Of a stretch of DNA of 32,000 nt, positions 21,812 to 30,745 are shown in pieces (the stretch's first letter is position 1; each line of letters opens with the position of its first letter). The DNA comes from an uncultured archaeon. GTDB taxonomy: Archaea > Asgardarchaeota > Jordiarchaeia > Jordiarchaeales > Jordiarchaeaceae. A model generated the notes under the pieces. That model made no database searches and was not told the DNA's origin. It saw only the letters and a list, made by a program, of their open reading frames with translations. A program made the translations under genes and the position numbers. The stretch lies in assembly GCA_964510585.1 (NCBI GenBank), contig CAZECW010000118.1, positions 5,552 to 37,551 of the forward strand, in the 5' to 3' direction.

Positions 21812-23113
21812 TTGAGTATTATGGATGTGGTTTTGAAGGAAATTGATTCGAGAAGAGATGATATAGTTAAACTGGTTCAGGAGCTGATCCGTTATAAGAC
21901 TGTGAATCCTCCCGGAGATACTGTTGAAATTGCTGGTTTCATGAAGGATTATCTTTCTGATAGTGGCTTGAGTGTTAATCTCTATGAATCGCAAAAAGGA
22001 AAGGTGAGTGTGGTGGGAATACTGAGGGGGCGGGGTAAGCGTAGATTCATTTGGGATGGTCATGTGGATGTTGTGCCGGTATCTAATCCTGAGGCTTGGA
22101 TTGCTGATCCTTGGGAGGGTAAAGTGGTTGATTCGCGTATTATTGGCAGAGGGGCTGCAGATATGAAAGGCAATGTTGGAGCTGCTATGGTGGCGGCTAA
22201 GGTTCTGGCCGAGAAGGATGTGGGTCTTATGGGGGATCTGGTTCTGGCTTTGGTTCCTGATGAGGAAACTGGTGGATATTTGGGTTCTGGTTTCCTTGTG
22301 GATAAAGATGTTTTAAAGGGTGACGCCTGCATTGTGGGCGAATTCTCCCCCTTTAATACACTGTGCGTAGGTGAAAAGGGTATATTATGGCTGAGCGTGA
22401 AGGCTAGAGGAATACCTGCTCATGCCAGTGTGAAATTTCTAGGTGTTAACGCTATAGATCTGCTGTGTCAGTTCTGCTTTGAGTTATACAAAATTGAGCA
22501 GGTGGATAGAACGCTTCCCGAAGATGTCAATAGGATAATAGATGCGATACAGCCCACCTTGAAACAGCTGGAGGCCCTGGGATTTCCTAGGGAGTTGATT
22601 AACAAAATGTACAAAAGATTATCTGTAAATGTGGGTATGATTAGGGGAGGAGAAAAGGTAAATATCGTTCCAGCTAATGCGGAGGCGGAAGTGGATATAA
22701 GAATCCTACCTGGAATGGACTATGACCAGGTTAAAGAGGAAATTAACAAAATCCGAATAGACTTTAACAAAACTTTGGAGAAAACCTATCCAAATCTAAA
22801 GTCTGCGGGAATAGAGGGAATCACAGTGGAAGAAACACTTAGATTTGAACCCTCCTACCAAAAACTCGACGCGCCTTTAGTTCCGCTGGTGAAAAATGTT
22901 ATAAAAAAGGTAACCGGTAGAGACCCATTACTATTTGTGCATACTGGAGGTACAGACGCTCGATTCTTCCGCGCTAAGGGCATTCCAACAGTCTGCTATG
23001 GTGCAGGCTCAGAAACTCCACATGGAACTAATGAATATGTACCGATAGAGAATCTGATCGAAGCCACAAAAGTTTACGCACTCGCTGCTGTAGATATCCT
23101 AGGCACTACTTGA
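21812..23113 (+). CDS. M20 family metallopeptidase/deacylase (ArgE/DapE-like)
   Basis: 'TVNPPG', 'DGHVDVVP', 'GRGAADMKG', 'DEETGG', 'GE', 'HAS', 'GGTDARFF' and 'HGTNE'. The TTG at 21812 follows a GAGGTGA SD (track 21803). Confidence 0.93.
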   Translation: MSIMDVVLKEIDSRRDDIVKLVQELIRYKTVNPPGDTVEIAGFMKDYLSDSGLSVNLYESQKGKVSVVGILRGRGKRRFIWDGHVDVVPVSNPEAWIADPWEGKVVDSRIIGRGAADMKGNVGAAMVAAKVLAEKDVGLMGDLVLALVPDEETGGYLGSGFLVDKDVLKGDACIVGEFSPFNTLCVGEKGILWLSVKARGIPAHASVKFLGVNAIDLLCQFCFELYKIEQVDRTLPEDVNRIIDAIQPTLKQLEALGFPRELINKMYKRLSVNVGMIRGGEKVNIVPANAEAEVDIRILPGMDYDQVKEEINKIRIDFNKTLEKTYPNLKSAGIEGITVEETLRFEPSYQKLDAPLVPLVKNVIKKVTGRDPLLFVHTGGTDARFFRAKGIPTVCYGAGSETPHGTNEYVPIENLIEATKVYALAAVDILGTT

Positions 23114-23354
23114 CCTTGAATAAAGTTCTTAGAATTTTCATTGCTTCATCAATATTCAAATTTTCCAATTTTTTCGCTTCTTCGTAGTGGTCTCCGCAGA
23201 ACCATCCCGCATAGGGCGGATGGCCAGTCATTCCCCCTTTTCTCATTTTTTCATCCCACTTATAATCGTCTGGTCGCTTTTTGAAATAGACCAACCCTCC
23301 CTCTTCACGGTCTCGAAAATCTTTATAACATATGTAGCATATTGGAGGTTTCAT
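23106..23354 (-). CDS. Small hypothetical Zn-binding protein (C-x2-C ... C-x2-H)
   Basis: 'PPICYIC' and 'GHPPYAGWFCGDH'. AAGGGTG SD. It overlaps the M20 gene end convergently by 8 bp. Confidence 0.8.
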   Translation of the reverse strand: MKPPICYICYKDFRDREEGGLVYFKKRPDDYKWDEKMRKGGMTGHPPYAGWFCGDHYEEAKKLENLNIDEAMKILRTLFKVK

Positions 23355-23781: not shown

Positions 23782-24903
23782 TTGTCGTTGGCAGATGTTT
23801 TGGACCGTGTTATTGAGAATTTGGATAGATTTGTTAATGAGGCGGATCTTGGTGATCCTTTCTTTTCGGGTTCGGGATACGTGGCGTATCCCTTTAGTGT
23901 GGAGAATTTTAGGGAGATTAAAGGTACTGGGTCTGAACGCAAAATGGCTTTTGTTGATGGGGGGAATCAGGAGATTGTGGGTGCTCCAAATTTTTCAATT
24001 CAGATTAATCGGGTTTTTTTCAACATCTTCCAGAATAAGAAGCGGGTTTTTGAAAGTGTGATGCCGAGGAGAATAGAATTTTTTTCGGTCACCTTTTCAA
24101 ATTTTAGGCAGAGCGAGATATATTATGACACCTCGATTTTCCCGGTAAGTGAAGAATTTGAAAACTATCTTCCAGACACTCGGGATCTCTCATTCAGCTC
24201 CATGGATCGCAGCGTGATGCAGGGGAATCTCAGAGCGGACATAGCAACAGTTTCCTCTATAGCGAGAAGATTCGCAGAGTGGGAATTCGCCAAACACGTA
24301 ATAGAGAATGAGCTAGAAGAAAAAGATGTCATTGTTATGGATGGCACCCTCCAAACCGCGTTTACCAACGAGTCTAAATACTCAAAGGCTGTCTATGAAC
24401 TGGCTAAAAAGAAGGGCGTTATTGTTACCGGTTTAACTAAGACCTGCGGCCTATTCACCACTACGGGCTTATCTCTTCTTGGGGCTGCAAGAAAATTCGC
24501 AAAAAACAACAATATAATATACCCCATGTGGTACTATTATCCTGTCGCAGAAGCCTTTAGCCCAGTTCACGAGGCAGTCATACTCTTAGTAAAACTCAAT
24601 CCTATGACGGAGCGAATCTTCCGATTCGAAATATATAGGGAACAGGCAAAAAAATTAAGTATAGAAGAAATAGGCGAGATAGTGGAATCTCTTTCCAACA
24701 ACTCTGCAGACATCACATTTCCAGGATATCCCTACGGACTTATAGACGCAGATTCAAACGCCCGGGTCCGCTCCGACGAAATGCAAAGATACAAGTATGC
24801 CCTGCTTTCAGCAATATCTAAAAAAGGTATATGGGGGAAATTTGCGAGACACATCCAAGCCAAAGACGCGCACGATAAGCTAAACCAACTGACCCACTGG
24901 TAA
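23782..24903 (+). CDS. nurA: NurA 5'-3' nuclease
   Basis: 'AFVDGGN', 'RRFAEWEFA', 'VMDGTL', 'GLTKT' and 'GYPYGLIDAD', plus proximity to herA-mre11-rad50. GGTGA SD. Confidence 0.88.
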   Translation: MSLADVLDRVIENLDRFVNEADLGDPFFSGSGYVAYPFSVENFREIKGTGSERKMAFVDGGNQEIVGAPNFSIQINRVFFNIFQNKKRVFESVMPRRIEFFSVTFSNFRQSEIYYDTSIFPVSEEFENYLPDTRDLSFSSMDRSVMQGNLRADIATVSSIARRFAEWEFAKHVIENELEEKDVIVMDGTLQTAFTNESKYSKAVYELAKKKGVIVTGLTKTCGLFTTTGLSLLGAARKFAKNNNIIYPMWYYYPVAEAFSPVHEAVILLVKLNPMTERIFRFEIYREQAKKLSIEEIGEIVESLSNNSADITFPGYPYGLIDADSNARVRSDEMQRYKYALLSAISKKGIWGKFARHIQAKDAHDKLNQLTHW

Positions 24904-24987: not shown

Positions 24988-25113
24988 TTATGTGGTAGTT
25001 GCGGCCTTCGCTTTCGCTGCTTTTGCTGTTTTTGCCTTTGCCTTTGCCTTTGCTGGTTTTGCTTCCTTTTCTTTTGGTTTTTCTTCCTTCTTCTTTCCAA
25101 ATATCCAACTCAT
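24988..25113 (-). CDS. 41-aa Lys/Ala-rich microprotein MSWIFGKKKEEKPKEKEAKPAKAKAKAKTAKAAKAKAATTT (not in ORF track)
   Basis: Translated by hand from ATG 25113 to TAA 24988. GAGG SD 12 nt upstream and TTTATA box at 25170-25175. It has a codon-phased (Ala-Lys) repeat and does not overlap other genes. Confidence 0.7.
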   Translation of the reverse strand: MSWIFGKKKEEKPKEKEAKPAKAKAKAKTAKAAKAKAATTT

Positions 25114-25354
25114 AATCTAATCAGTCCTCGCTCCAATTTTTTGCAAGAGGGTTTAACCCTAATTGTAGATATAAAGTCTTATAATTTTTAGCCTAATTAT
25201 CCTAATAAAAGTTTTCCAAAAATGTTCCTATTTTTTGGGCTGAGAATATGGAATTGTTATAGATGAGGAGAGTGGAGCAGAGTAAACGGGTGCTTCGCCT
25301 TTTGAATTTTTGAGCTTCTCCCTCGAATTTTTTAGAGTTTTTCTCTTTACGTGT

Positions 25355-25489
25355 TCATTTGCCTTTTGATTTTTTTCTTTTCGGGCTGGACTTTCTTTTC
25401 TTTTTAGTTTTCCGTCTCCTCTTTTTCTTTGATCCGAATAAGTCATCTATTTCCTTCTCAGTTTTTGGACCGATTATTCTTTTGCCCAA
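25355..25489 (-). CDS. 44-aa Lys/Arg-rich microprotein MGKRIIGPKTEKEIDDLFGSKKKRRRKTKKKRKSSPKRKKSKGK (not in ORF track)
   Basis: Translated by hand from TTG 25489 to TGA 25355. A strong AGGGTGA SD lies 7 nt upstream, the same spacing class as nurA and mre11. TTTATTA box at 25538-25544. Confidence 0.65.
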   Translation of the reverse strand: MGKRIIGPKTEKEIDDLFGSKKKRRRKTKKKRKSSPKRKKSKGK

Positions 25490-25907
25490 AAAATTTTCAC
25501 CCTAACATGTAGTAAATTGCTTAATTTATTTCTTGGCTAATAAATATTTGTGGAAAATTTAAATTTCTTCTTTGGAGATGAGAATTGTTGATTGGTATGG
25601 GGTGCTTATTATTTATCCTAAAATTTTGGGGTCTGTTGTTTTAGTTGGGAGAATGTGTGGGGTTGATTAGGGCTCTTGGCTAATTGGTTTAGAAGGAAAT
25701 CTTAAAAAAACCTACATGGTCTGCATTTCAAGACAAATGAAAACGTTTTTCATGTTAAAGTGTCTTAGATGACCTATTAGAGCAAGTAGTGGTAAATGTT
25801 TGTATCCTTATAAATGGAATCGCAGACAATTTTTAGAAAATATTAAAGACGTTGAATGTTGAGTTTCAAATTGAAGTCTTTCTATTTTCATAGTTGGTGG
25901 GTAAAAT

Positions 25908-27458
25908 ATGGATGTCGTTGGGCAAATAGTTGCGGGAGAGGTTTCCTCCATACTTATTCGCGAAAAGAGTGGTGAGAGAATCGAGCTGGGTGACCTCTTG
26001 GTTGTTGATGATAAGGATGGCTACCTTATTTTGAAGGTCTTCAATCTCTTGTATGGCAGTCAAGTTCCCCAAGCCGCCAGAGAGCTTCTTGCAGGTATGG
26101 AGTTGGAGGGGCATGGCGGCGCAGTTGATTTTCTAGAGCCTGAATTGAGGAGCTACGTTTTAGCTGAGGTTAAGGCCATCGCAAAGGTTACGGGAAAAAA
26201 CGAGTTGTATGCTCCTAAAACTTTGCCGGGATTCTTTAAAAGTGTTAGATTAATTTCGGAGAAAAACCTTAACTTTTTGACCAAGCCACCCTGTCCCGTG
26301 TATCTGGGTAAGGTTCGCAGTGGCTCCAAGGTTTTGAATGTTGATGTTTTTTTGAACGGCTTAGACATTTTTACCCATCACGTCTTGGTTGCAGCCACTA
26401 CGGGTAGGGGCAAAAGTAACTTGGTGAAGGTTATGCTGTGGAGCATTGTGGGTGAAGACAATTTTGGCGTCTTGGTTCTGGATCCCCACGACGAGTATTA
26501 CGGGCGTCATGCCAACGCCAAAGGTTTGAAAGATCACCCTAAGGCTAAGGACAACATATTCTATTTTTCTCCGAATCCCATTCCGGGCACCCATACCTTG
26601 GTGGTTAATTTAAAGTCCATTAAGCCCTCACACTTTGAAGGGATAATTGACTTTACTGATCCCCAGTGGGACGCCATCAAAATTTATTATAATCTTTATG
26701 GGGAAAACTGGATTGAAAGCATTGTAAGGGGGGAGAAATCAAATGGCATTGCTTCAAGAACATTGGATGTGCTCCAAAGAAAGTTCAATAACGCTTTGGG
26801 AGTTTATATGGACTCCTCAGGGATTCTCCAGTGTAGAAGCCGAACATTCAGCGACACTGCGGGGGAGTCTACTATAAATGAAATAATTCAGATTCTGGAG
26901 AAGGGAAAAATGGTGATTCTCGACACTTCACGGTTACTGGATCAAGCTGAGCTACTTCTGGGCAGCATAGTGATTGAGGGTATATTTAACAGGTATCAGC
27001 AGTATAAATCTACGGGTGAGCTTGACGCCAAGCCGGTGATAACACTGGTGATTGAGGAGGCTCCACGCGTACTGGGAACTGAGGTTTTGTCCTCGATGGG
27101 TGAAAACATTTATGCCACTGTGGCTAGGGAGGGAAGAAAATTTAAAGTGGGGCTTATTGCCATTACTCAATTGACTAGCGTTATTCCCAGAACTATTCTT
27201 GCAAATATGAATACCAAAATCATTATGGGTAATGAGGTGGCTCCCGAGCGCAGGGCCATCATTGATAGCGCCGCCCAAGACCTTTCAGATGAGGACAGGG
27301 AGATTGCAAGCCTAGATAAGGGCGAGGCCATTATAAGCAGCAACTTCACAAAGTTCGCCATACCCGTACACGTTCCGCTTTTTGAAGAATACATTAAAAA
27401 ATTTGAAGAAGAGGCCCGAACTAAAAAGAAGGAGGAGTCAACGGTTTTCATCGGGTGA
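25908..27458 (+). CDS. herA: HerA bipolar DNA helicase/translocase
   Basis: N-terminal HAS-barrel-like region, Walker A 'ATTGRGKS', 'VLDPHDEY', Walker B 'VIEEA', '[10 protein letters not shown]' and '[10 protein letters not shown]'. Confidence 0.93.
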
Positions 27459-27464
27459 ATTGAT

Positions 27465-28718
27465 TTGAAGTTTGCCCATATATCCGACTGTCATCTCGGT
27501 TCCAATAAGGAACCACTACTAAAAAATTTGGAATTGGAAGCCTTCCACTACGCCTTGGAGGAATGCATGAAGAGAAAGGTAGACTTCATCCTAATCACTG
27601 GAGACCTTTTCCATTCCAACATTCCGGACCTTGGGGTGGTGAACTCTGCAGTTAAAAAGATGAAGGAGGTGGTTCTCCAGAACATCCCCATATATGTAAT
27701 ATATGGGAGTCATGACTATAGCCCCAATGAAACCTCCATAGTTGACATTCTAAGCAGTGCGGGTCTATTTACAAAGGTGGTTCGGGGGGAAATAAGGAAC
27801 GAAAAGTTGACGCTACAATTTTTCACAGACCCAAAAACTGGGGTAAAAATAGTCGGCATTTCCGCCCGCAGATTGGGGCTTGAAAAGAAGTATTTTGAGA
27901 TGCTTGACCGTGAAGCTCTAGAAAAGGAGTCGGGTTTCAAAATTTTTGCTTTTCATAGTGGAATAACTGAACTTAAACCCAAAAGCCTCTCCCCCATGGA
28001 GTCCATACCCCTCTCCTATCTCCCCAAAGGATTCAATTATTATGCCGGCGGACATATACACCAGCACATAAAGCAGAGATTTGAGGGGTATGGACTGGTA
28101 GCTTATCCAGGCACAATTTTTGCGGGTTATCCCCGAGACATGGAGGACAGTGCGAGAGGTGAAAGAAGAGGGTTCCTAATAGTTTCATTTGGCAGTGATA
28201 TTGAGAATGTGGAGTTTGTTGAGATACCCGGACCCGAATATGTCCTTTTTGACTATGACGCCACTGGCAAGAATTCAGCTAGAGTAAATGAAGAACTCAC
28301 CAATAAATGTAGTGAGCTCTCCGCAGAGAACAAAATCGTCCTTATTAGAGTCAGCGGCGAAATGTCCGGAGGCAACACAGCCGACATAGACTTTACAAAA
28401 CTGAGAAACATACTTACTCAGAAGGGCGCGCTCTACGTTAATATTAACCGTCATAGTCTAACCACAAGGGAGTATCAGACACTGAGACCTATGGGGGAAG
28501 ATATTAGTGAAATTGAGAGAAATCTCTTCAGGGAAAACATAGGAGCAGTAAAGGTATCGGTGGAATCTCTAAAGGGTGAGCAGGGAGCAAAATTAGCCTC
28601 AGACCTTCTAAAGATCTTGAAACAGAGCCAGAAGGTTGGCGAAACTAAGAAGGATTATGAGAGTAGGGTGTTAAAACAAGCAGTCGACCTTCTAAAGCTG
28701 GAGGAGGCTTTAGAATGA
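27465..28718 (+). CDS. mre11: Mre11 DNA double-strand-break repair nuclease
   Basis: Phosphoesterase motifs 'SDCHLG', 'GDLFH', 'GSHD', 'AFH', 'GGHIH' and 'YPG'. Its stop overlaps the rad50 start (ATGA). Confidence 0.95.
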   Translation: MKFAHISDCHLGSNKEPLLKNLELEAFHYALEECMKRKVDFILITGDLFHSNIPDLGVVNSAVKKMKEVVLQNIPIYVIYGSHDYSPNETSIVDILSSAGLFTKVVRGEIRNEKLTLQFFTDPKTGVKIVGISARRLGLEKKYFEMLDREALEKESGFKIFAFHSGITELKPKSLSPMESIPLSYLPKGFNYYAGGHIHQHIKQRFEGYGLVAYPGTIFAGYPRDMEDSARGERRGFLIVSFGSDIENVEFVEIPGPEYVLFDYDATGKNSARVNEELTNKCSELSAENKIVLIRVSGEMSGGNTADIDFTKLRNILTQKGALYVNINRHSLTTREYQTLRPMGEDISEIERNLFRENIGAVKVSVESLKGEQGAKLASDLLKILKQSQKVGETKKDYESRVLKQAVDLLKLEEALE

Positions 28719-30745
28719 GAGTTAAATCATTAAAACTGGTAAACATTCGCAGCTACCAGGAAGAAAATATTGAGTTTCCAGAGGGAACAACCCTTTTTGA
28801 GGGTGATATTGGCTCCGGAAAATCCACCATTCTCCTAGCCATCGAATTTGCGCTTTTCGGTTTAGGAGACCAGAAGGGGGCCTCTCTACTAAGACTTGGG
28901 GCTAAAGAAGGCTCTGTAACCTTCACCTTCGAATTAGACGGAAGCGAGTACGAAGTTCAACGCAAACTTGTGAGAAAAGGAAACACTGTTCAACAGAAGG
29001 AAGGCTGCTTAATCATTAATGGTAAAAGATATGACCTCTCACCCACTGAACTGAAGGAAAAAATTTTGGAAATTCTCAGGTTTAACGAGCCTCCCAATCC
29101 TAATGCTCAAAGTGTAATCTATAGGTATGCTATTTTTACACCCCAAGAAGAAATGAAGGCAATTCTGTGGGCTAAACCCCAGGAAAGACTACAGACTATG
29201 AGGAAAGCCTTCGGAATAGAAGACTACAGAACCGCTGCAGAAAACGCAAAAATCCTCATAGGCAAAATCAAGGAAAAAAGCGATTTTCTCAAAGGAAGAA
29301 TCCAAGACCTAGAGCAAAAGAAAAAGGACCTAGAAACGAAAACAGACGAAATAAGAAAAGCAGAAGAATCACTAAAAACTTTAAGCGAAGAAAATCAAAA
29401 GCTGGACTCTGAACTCAAGAAGCAAGAGGAAGAAATAGAAAAGCTCAGAGAACAGGAAAAGGAGCTCAGCAGCATCCAGAAGCTAATTCCCAAACTCAAA
29501 GAAGACATAAAAGAAAAAACAAAAAGAAGACAAAAACTGCAGCTCGAAAACAATGATTACAAGAAGGAAATAGAAGAACAGCTCCAACCCAAAATAGAAG
29601 AACTCAGCAAATTCCAAAAACCAACAGACAAAAATGAGAAGGAACTGCAAAACATAATCGACGAAATGAGAAGGAACGAGCGAGAACTATTCCAAAATGT
29701 CAACAGATTTAACCTCAAAATAGAAGATTACCAACAAATAATCGATAACAAAATCTGCCCCACCTGCGACAGAGAAGTTGACCCCAAAGAATTCGGAGAA
29801 AAACTAAACAACCTGAAGAAAGAAAGAGACACGGTAGAAGAAGAACGCAAAAAACTGGCCGAAGCCCTAGAAAACACACAATCCCAACTGGACATACTCA
29901 GAGAATACAACAAGAATCAGGAAAAACTCAGCCAACTCACCAAAAGCCTAGAAGATAAAAAGAAGAGGCTCACTCAAAACATGGAAGAAATGCTTGAACT
30001 CTCCAACCAAATAGAGCGGCTAGACGCCGAGATAAAAATAAACCAGAAAAAACTTGAGGAACTAAAAAGTGTCTCTGAAAAAATTGAACAAGCAAAAAAC
30101 AAGCTGGAAACCCTCAAGAAGCAGAGTGAAGAAATAAAAGACCAAATTTCCAAAGCCCAAAAACAAATAGAAATCTACAAAAAACATAAGGAAGAACTCC
30201 AAGCTGAGATTCAAGAGAAGGAGAAACAGGCAAAAACCAAACAGTTACTTGATGAACACCGCATCTGGCTCCAAGACTACTATACACCCACACTGGAAAG
30301 TATTGAGAAACACGTATTGAGAAGCATAAACCAAGAATTCAACCAACAACTCCAGAAATGGTTCACCATCCTCGTAGACGACCCAGGAAAAAGCGTCAGA
30401 ATAGACGAAGAGTTCACGCCCATAATTGAGCAAGACGGCTACGAGCAAAACATAAACTACATGAGCGGAGGAGAAAAAACCAGCCTAGCACTCGTATACC
30501 GACTAGCACTAAACAACATAGTAAGAAAAGTATCCACCGCCATGAAAACCAACCTCCTCATAATGGATGAACCCACCGATGGATTCAGCAAGGAACAGCT
30601 CTCAAAAGTGAGAGAAATACTAAACGAGCTGCAAAACGCACAGGTAATATTGGTTTCACATGAGAGAGAGTTGGAGAGCTTCGCCGATCAGGTCTTCAGG
30701 GTAGAAAAAAGAAACGGCGTATCAAAAGTAGAACCGGCAACATAA
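28715..30745 (+). CDS. rad50: Rad50 ATPase
   Basis: Walker A 'GDIGSGKST', Q-loop 'TPQEE', coiled coils around a central Zn-hook CPTC (C348/C351), signature 'MSGGE', Walker B 'IMDEPT' and H-loop 'VSHE'. Confidence 0.95.
   Translation: MRVKSLKLVNIRSYQEENIEFPEGTTLFEGDIGSGKSTILLAIEFALFGLGDQKGASLLRLGAKEGSVTFTFELDGSEYEVQRKLVRKGNTVQQKEGCLIINGKRYDLSPTELKEKILEILRFNEPPNPNAQSVIYRYAIFTPQEEMKAILWAKPQERLQTMRKAFGIEDYRTAAENAKILIGKIKEKSDFLKGRIQDLEQKKKDLETKTDEIRKAEESLKTLSEENQKLDSELKKQEEEIEKLREQEKELSSIQKLIPKLKEDIKEKTKRRQKLQLENNDYKKEIEEQLQPKIEELSKFQKPTDKNEKELQNIIDEMRRNERELFQNVNRFNLKIEDYQQIIDNKICPTCDREVDPKEFGEKLNNLKKERDTVEEERKKLAEALENTQSQLDILREYNKNQEKLSQLTKSLEDKKKRLTQNMEEMLELSNQIERLDAEIKINQKKLEELKSVSEKIEQAKNKLETLKKQSEEIKDQISKAQKQIEIYKKHKEELQAEIQEKEKQAKTKQLLDEHRIWLQDYYTPTLESIEKHVLRSINQEFNQQLQKWFTILVDDPGKSVRIDEEFTPIIEQDGYEQNINYMSGGEKTSLALVYRLALNNIVRKVSTAMKTNLLIMDEPTDGFSKEQLSKVREILNELQNAQVILVSHERELESFADQVFRVEKRNGVSKVEPAT

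Follow-up and report, generated by a model that had tools for sequence, protein, structure and literature searches.

NurA is a partner-regulated protein, with SSB and Hel112 among its known modulators, and none from an Asgard archaeon has so far been characterised (PMC13748450). Two sets of described basic proteins also bear on the locus analysed here. In archaea, Sul7d, Cren7, Alba, MC1 and the histone fold bind DNA without sequence specificity, several of them coming from thermophiles, and all are folded domains of 60-100 aa. The linker-histone H1 C-terminal tails, Chlamydia Hc1/Hc2, the mycobacterial HupB C-terminus and AlgP make up a second, H1-type comparison set. We examined a 44-codon open reading frame (ORF), here called pep1, together with its neighbour pep2, in a 32,000-nt stretch of DNA from an uncultured Asgard archaeon (the window, in whose positions all coordinates are given unless a contig or locus is named). 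An earlier note on this DNA had placed pep1 within a DNA-break-repair cluster, and the Pfam assignments of the surrounding genes bear this out. On one side is nurA (23782-24903, plus strand; PF09376), which is convergent with the microgenes. On the other side lie herA (25908-27458, plus strand; PF01935), separated by 418 nt from pep1 and on the opposite strand to it, the gene for an Mre11-type phosphoesterase (mre11; 27465-28718, plus strand) and that for a Rad50/SMC-type ATPase (rad50; 28715-30745, plus strand).

The pep1 coding sequence occupies positions 25355-25489 on the minus strand and runs from a TTG start through 44 codons to a TGA stop. Residues 1-19 form a conserved motif, MGKR-h-h-G-x-[KR]-TE-[KR]-x-h-D-x-L-x-G, whose second half in the source species reads TEKEIDDLFG (residues 10-19), and residues 20-44 form a polybasic tail that includes SSPKRK (residues 34-39). 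Lysine and arginine account for 22 of the 44 residues (16 Lys and 6 Arg) and for 18 of the 24 at the C-terminal end, giving a net charge of +18 in 44 residues. A Shine-Dalgarno (SD)-like AGGGTGA (25497-25503, minus strand) stands 7 nt upstream of the TTG. The ORF, its SD-like sequence, both Lys/Arg counts and the TEKEIDDLFG segment had been described in the earlier note, and all were reproduced. GGTGA is complementary to the canonical 3′ end of archaeal 16S rRNA; the 16S rRNA 3′ end itself was not found in the source assembly. Because an in-frame stop lies 2-4 codons upstream of the TTG in genomes of the source-species type, the start of pep1 cannot sit much farther up. Upstream of the TTG, at a distance of about 36 nt to its centre, is a putative TATA-like A/T-rich box, gAAATAAATTAAG (25520-25532, minus strand), with a second A/T box at 25538-25549; from the motif alone, we infer that the A/T-rich box is a TATA-like promoter element.

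The genes nurA (23782), pep1 (25489) and mre11 (27465) all begin at TTG. By a rough count across the source genome, 1134 of 2361 long ORFs have a candidate start with an SD-like 5-mer ahead of it; TTG is the start in 435 of these 1134 SD-preceded candidates, and TTG initiation seems to be unusually common in this organism. The Lys/Arg content of pep1 was ranked against 34,093 ORFs of 25-90 aa from the 3.78-Mb genome. It comes first among ORFs of at least 30 aa and is exceeded in the whole set by only two ORFs, both of 25 aa, and its Lys/Arg richness exceeds chance composition. One of these two is an eL41-like ORF (…REKWKKKRLRRQRRKRRKRK; contig C72:13906-13983, plus strand), which is the most Lys/Arg-rich small ORF of the genome. 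The DNA also occurs in hot-spring metagenomes.

Orthologues of pep1 were recovered by six-frame search from all six Jordarchaeum species genomes, namely that of the source species (G000) and five others (G001-G005; L-numbers below denote contigs or loci). These six copies are 53-89% identical to the G000 copy, comprise 41-44 codons and contain no internal stops. An exhaustive HMMER profile search of 1.84 billion representative proteins added two kin of 38 and 42 aa, both encoded on short metagenome contigs and beginning at TTG, and two further orthologues (45 and 40 aa) were obtained from contigs encoding close NurA relatives. The resulting alignment, A2, holds 10 distinct sequences of 38-45 aa with 11 invariant columns, all from one genus-level clade, so that the sequences are non-independent and the counts small (22 codons). 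Searches with the profile against five same-order genomes and 389 other Asgard genomes returned nothing credible, only low-complexity matches at E>0.01, and a near-length protein search of 5.8 billion predicted proteins gave no match at E<=1. Pattern scans derived from A2 found no confirmed relative among JGI metagenome and IMG/VR viral contigs, a miss that may in part be technical, since one of the two patterns begins with M while the gene begins with TTG. The family to which pep1 belongs is restricted to Ca. Jordarchaeum and close kin and was previously unnamed, and the gene is mostly unannotated. The expectation that gene callers would miss or misframe such a gene was borne out on two contigs, where a wrong overlapping 85-aa frame had been called; the correct product of 38-42 aa had been called on four others.

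The proposal that a hidden coding frame lies here has held up on comparison of related genomes. The frame is open in all 10 orthologues, and each begins with TTG. An SD-like sequence, GGTGA in nine and GAGG in one, is retained 7-9 nt upstream of every one of these starts. All length differences among the orthologues are multiples of three nucleotides, and the flanking spacers carry indels of 1, 2, 4 and 5 nt between species and among the strains listed. The stop codon is TGA in most orthologues and TAA in one, indicating that the ORF ends at an ordinary stop. Read-through of the TGA was considered and rejected: the 49 open codons that follow it in G000 are broken by non-triplet indels in sister species, and the TAA in one orthologue contradicts it as well. 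Also rejected was a 72-aa minus-strand frame at 25228-25446, in which pN/pS is 0.9-1.3 and which a 5-nt indel disrupts in G004. A scan for sigma-70-type promoters and terminators was set aside as not relevant to archaea.

Selection on the frame, which the earlier note had framed in terms of dN/dS, was measured as pN/pS over the first 22-23 codons. Between clades, pS in this segment reaches 0.63-0.87, matching nurA (0.69-0.72). The corresponding pN/pS is 0.10-0.43, with a pooled value of 0.34 over 45 pairs, compared with 0.07-0.15 for nurA and 0.9-1.3 for the other two sense frames over pep1. The replacements in the pep1 frame are conservative (I/V/L, K/R, D/E and I/L/M), with a mean per-column BLOSUM62 score of +0.97 and scores of at least 0 in 10 of the 13 variable columns. 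The tail behaves differently: over its 19-26 residues the sequence drifts among the 10 orthologues and the composition is kept, with 65-79% Lys plus Arg, no Asp or Glu in any orthologue, and a net charge of +16 to +22. These patterns indicate that the N-terminal part is under purifying selection and that the polycationic tail is selected by composition. The flanks in G002 and G005 are unalignable with those of G000 except for the A/T box upstream of the start, and the peptide is nonetheless kept, so that its conservation does not merely reflect a short divergence time. A box of the form (A/G)ATATAAA(T/A) occurs 33-47 nt upstream in eight of the 10 orthologues. About 15 nt past the stop, four of the more distant orthologues (those of G002, G005, L042 and L048) carry a T6 run, which fits a putative oligo-T terminator of the archaeal type and a gene transcribed as a unit of its own. 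With its kept start and ribosome-binding site, triplet-only indels, excess of synonymous and conservative change, and synteny, pep1 bears the marks of a coding gene and is, on this comparative evidence, very probably a real one. Two runs labelled metatranscriptomic yielded contigs from a relative about 92% identical, with flat depth over nurA, the spacer and herA; since depth is flat across genes and spacers alike, those contigs are uninformative on transcription.

The same gene order is found in all six genomes: an M20 peptidase gene, an 82-aa ORF, nurA, a microgene on the opposite strand, and herA-mre11-rad50. All the Jordarchaeum-type nurA contexts examined have a microgene of this family directly downstream of nurA and convergent with it, and the pep1 and nurA stop codons are about 45-60 nt apart in G002, G005, L040, L042 and L048. 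L041, a contig of 672 nt with a coverage of 1.6, carries a pep1 orthologue without nurA downstream. The synteny with herA/nurA for which the earlier note proposed a test is constant at the nurA 3′ end, L041 excepted, and does not extend to the herA side, which is variable. The 418-nt spacing belongs to the source species. In G002 the pep1-herA spacer is 3.3 kb long (L010:2995-6308) and contains TPR and HTH-type genes as well as a duplicated 24-codon fragment of the herA 5′ end (L010:5072-5143). In G005 it spans about 4 kb (L011:8250-12050) and contains two HEAT-repeat genes, together with a small two-gene pair that, by eye, looks like a toxin-antitoxin system. The pep1-herA spacer is an insertion hot spot in these two genomes. 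G003 carries a 328-bp element with a 10-bp direct repeat, TAYGTGTTAG, on either side (L013:5028-5365; equivalent to about position 25505 of the window), and diverged copies or fragments of the element are present elsewhere in G003, G000 and G001; this insertion is probably a MITE-like dispersed repeat. It separates the TATA-like box from the SD of pep1, which makes that promoter assignment uncertain. The divergent region that pep1 was said to share with herA therefore exists here, at 418 nt, and gives way to 3-4 kb of other sequence in G002 and G005 and is interrupted by the 328-bp element in G003; given this variability, it is specific to the source species group.

Two other lineages encode a NurA 57-58% identical to that of the window, and in both nurA and herA overlap directly, without a microgene between them, which indicates that the microgene cassette breaks into an operon that is otherwise tight. 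Other lineages encode NurA relatives at 52-61% identity, some of them in records labelled Thermoproteota or Thorarchaeota, and a protein search of five same-order genomes did not find the window NurA. At least four genes of the source genome score above the Pfam cut-off for the NurA domain, the others being on contigs C137, C114 and C195; the copy in the window is the one linked to herA-mre11-rad50. The 82-aa ORF on the far side of nurA (23106-23354, minus strand) has a Cys/His-containing N-terminus and no Pfam match. It is 68-84% identical and syntenic in all six species, and at its 3′ end it shares 8 nt with the end of the M20 peptidase gene.

Between pep1 and nurA lies the second microgene, the likewise unannotated pep2 (24988-25113, minus strand), which encodes 41 aa from an ATG start, beginning MSWIFGKKK and continuing into a Lys/Ala/Glu/Pro tail. 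Upstream of its ATG is an SD-like GGAGCGAGG (25126-25134, minus strand) that is kept in G000, G001, G003 and G004 and is represented by CGAGG in L049/L050. Orthologues of 39-45 aa, differing by triplet indels, are present in G001, G003, G004 and contigs L049/L050; with the source-species pep2 as query, none was found in G002 or G005. In L049/L050, whose NurA is 84% identical, the pep2 type is the sole family member at the nurA 3′ end. L049 further retains, just before the pep2 ATG, an untranslated in-frame ...RTEKNM that matches the [KR]TEKxM of pep1. A colinear alignment of the pep1 and pep2 loci, extending from the promoter box through the tail, scores 36; shuffles average 21.4 (sd 3.0), and two of 500 reached the score of the real pair. 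Among the small ORFs of the source genome, the combination h-F-G-(S)-KKK plus a basic tail was found in pep1 and pep2 only, plus one dubious match. These features identify pep2 as an apparent diverged duplicate of pep1, in which the N-terminal segment would have been lost and a new start acquired.

Direct searches for a function gave no lead. No Pfam family matches pep1 at E<=0.1, and its best ESM Atlas score, 0.79, is to unnamed clusters that provide no functional lead. AlphaFold2 models it with a mean pLDDT of 65 and a pTM of 0.23, with a low-confidence helix over residues 8-27. A predicted complex of a NurA dimer (84-row alignment) with pep1 (10 rows) scored 0.12, below the mark of 0.32, and was counted neither way. 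A PIP-box, Q-x-x-[ILM]-x-x-[FY]-[FY], was looked for and rejected, the best register being E-K-x-[ILM]-D-x-L-[FS], with Glu in place of Gln, Leu at position 7 and, in three orthologues, Ser at position 8. Likenesses to a ribosomal-stalk-type 'LFG' and to a Ku-binding motif are not claimed.

The charge of the peptide, together with the analogy to H1-type tails, protamines and polybasic ribosomal proteins, suggests that pep1 may bind nucleic acid, a proposal to which we give about an even chance. On this model, the polycationic tail would make non-specific, electrostatic contact with a polyanion, most probably DNA or RNA, and the N-terminal segment would give specificity, through docking to a partner or folding on a ligand. 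In the ancestor of Jordarchaeum, the gene would have arisen, or been inserted, in the nurA-herA interval and so have split the usual nurA-herA-mre11-rad50 operon. A later duplication would then have produced pep2, with loss of the N-terminal segment and gain of a Lys/Ala tail. As a whole, the account that we narrowly favour is that pep1 is a real, genus-restricted microgene encoding a two-part nucleic-acid-binding peptide, with an origin between nurA and herA and a duplication giving rise to pep2. A role specific to repair is speculative, the link being gene position.

One more specific possibility, which we regard as unlikely, is that pep1 is an accessory of end resection, its N-terminus docking to NurA (or to HerA or Mre11-Rad50) and its tail tethering the complex to DNA ends or shielding them, as in the break-protecting protein suggested by the earlier note. 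In favour of such a role, a family member has persisted beside the 3′ end of nurA through repeated remodelling of the herA side, both paralogues are found in the source genome only at the nurA locus, and NurA is known to be regulated by partners such as SSB and Hel112 (PMC13748450). However, the genes are convergent rather than co-transcribed, synteny within one genus can result from simple inheritance, and the short contig L041 has pep1 without nurA. Moreover, among the NurA relatives 52-61% identical from elsewhere, the two contexts examined are without a microgene, so that pep1 is not a general requirement of that type of NurA. We hold to be quite unlikely the extended proposal in which the pep1/pep2 family, born between nurA and herA and then duplicated and remodelled into pep1 with a Lys/Arg tail and pep2 with an H1-like Lys/Ala tail, is a dedicated DNA-end or chromatin adaptor for NurA-HerA-Mre11-Rad50.

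A different kind of ligand also has to be weighed. Both paralogues have a hydrophobic h-F-G motif with a polybasic run behind it, which would be compatible with a membrane- or surface-active polycation (acting on anionic lipids or the envelope) or with a peptide of antimicrobial or toxin type, and the occurrence of an eL41-like ORF among the very short Lys/Arg-rich proteins of the source genome would be compatible with an eL41-like filler of the ribosome. The start of pep2, MSWIFGKKK, resembles the membrane-inserting N-termini of ESCRT-III proteins, a resemblance that points in this direction and that we do not claim. Against a non-nucleic-acid ligand, the peptide has no signal peptide and no hydrophobic segment long enough for a membrane span or anchor, no neighbouring immunity or export gene is linked to pep1, and a family confined to one genus is unlikely to be a ribosomal component. 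We consider such ligands rather improbable.

Another alternative accepts that pep1 is translated and holds that it is young and dispensable, having possibly arisen de novo from A-rich intergenic DNA, and that it mainly uncouples the transcription of nurA and herA. Its restriction to one genus would be expected of such a gene, as would the fast turnover of the locus, at which pep1 only, pep2 only or both are found according to lineage, and the insertion of a repeat element into the leader in G003. This alternative is nevertheless decidedly improbable, because purifying selection on the N-terminus is seen where synonymous divergence is already saturated, all 10 orthologues retain the start and SD, and the composition of the tail is held despite drift of its sequence.

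The weakest alternative ascribes the conservation to the plus strand, either to a Phe/Leu-rich 48-aa ORF (25359-25505) that is antisense to pep1 and runs in the same direction as nurA and herA, or to a cis-acting or antisense RNA element between those two genes, with no gene on the minus strand. The antisense frame that shares its wobble positions with pep1 is uninterrupted in each of the 10 sequences, has a pN/pS of 0.37, near the 0.34 of the pep1 frame, and in G002 has a possible start in an ATG that overlaps the stop of nurA. Statistics of codon position alone consequently cannot choose the strand, which was decided instead by the quality of the replacements and by the kept start and stop of pep1; the open antisense frame is explained by the fact that a stop there would need Tyr, His or Gln codons in pep1, which has none. 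This alternative is very improbable, as neither the start nor the end of the antisense ORF is conserved, non-triplet indels occur in the DNA through which its upstream part runs, its replacements are radical (I/T, S/L and F/R; mean BLOSUM62 score -0.76, with 6 of 14 columns at 0 or above), Rfam has no match over the pep1 region at either the gathering cut-off or E<=1, and RNA folding of the region is no better than that of shuffles (z -0.32). A tRNA scan also found nothing.

Returning to the account that we favour, metagenome-assembled genomes systematically miss microproteins, and pep1 is a case with unusually clean comparative support. In a relative of the eukaryotic ancestor, it shows a lineage-specific gene splitting the end-resection operon, which in archaea is otherwise tight, and together pep1 and pep2 appear to capture the duplication of a microgene with a swapped start and tail type. 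If pep1 binds DNA or modulates NurA or HerA, it would provide a new, chemically synthesisable handle on Asgard repair or chromatin, and if the family were indeed an adaptor of the NurA-HerA-Mre11-Rad50 system, it would be an archaeal counterpart, no larger than a peptide, to the disordered basic tails of eukaryotic repair and chromatin factors. Should neither be true of pep1, the result would be a modest correction to the annotation of one uncultured genus.

How pep1 compares with known basic proteins depends on which of its features is considered. Like protamines, it is very short and has an extreme positive charge. Unlike protamines, which are Arg-dominated and eukaryotic, it is an archaeal peptide with no sequence relationship to them, and Lys dominates its composition, with Arg at only 6 of 44 positions; its orthologues are likewise Lys-dominated. 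The likeness is one of composition only, and the label 'protamine-like' used in the earlier note does not fit. With eL41 (eS32), pep1 shares its length class, its density of Lys and Arg, and runs such as KKKR and RRK, and it differs in having no Pfam match, in being confined to one genus, in its TEKxIDDLFG motif and in its place beside nurA. Like Sul7d, Cren7, Alba, MC1 and the histone fold, pep1 is small, basic, lineage-restricted and archaeal; in contrast to those folded domains, it is predicted to be mostly unstructured, and it matches none of them in Pfam.

The H1-type set offers a further comparison. As in these tails, the peptides of the pep1 family are predicted to be disordered, with Lys-rich, acid-free sequence, S/T/P/A/G spacers and conservation of composition over sequence. 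Unlike H1-type proteins, pep1 lacks a globular winged-helix or HU domain (Pfam finds none, and 44 aa are too few to form one), and unlike the tails themselves it is only 38-45 aa long and starts with its own conserved motif of 19 residues. The S/T-P-K/R-K/R repeats of H1 are represented by a single SPKR in G000, the other sequences having SSSKRK, PGSKRR or neither. The S-S-P-K-R-K motif to which the earlier note drew attention is accordingly genuine in the source species and absent from the other nine orthologues, and the argument built upon it, from minor-groove-binding and phosphorylation motifs of the S/T-P-K-K type, fails for nine of the 10 sequences. The tail of pep2 comes closer, consisting of AKPKAAKAK-type Lys/Ala/Pro repeats that are typical of H1-like tails, and in this respect the paralogue strengthens the H1-like analogy for the family.
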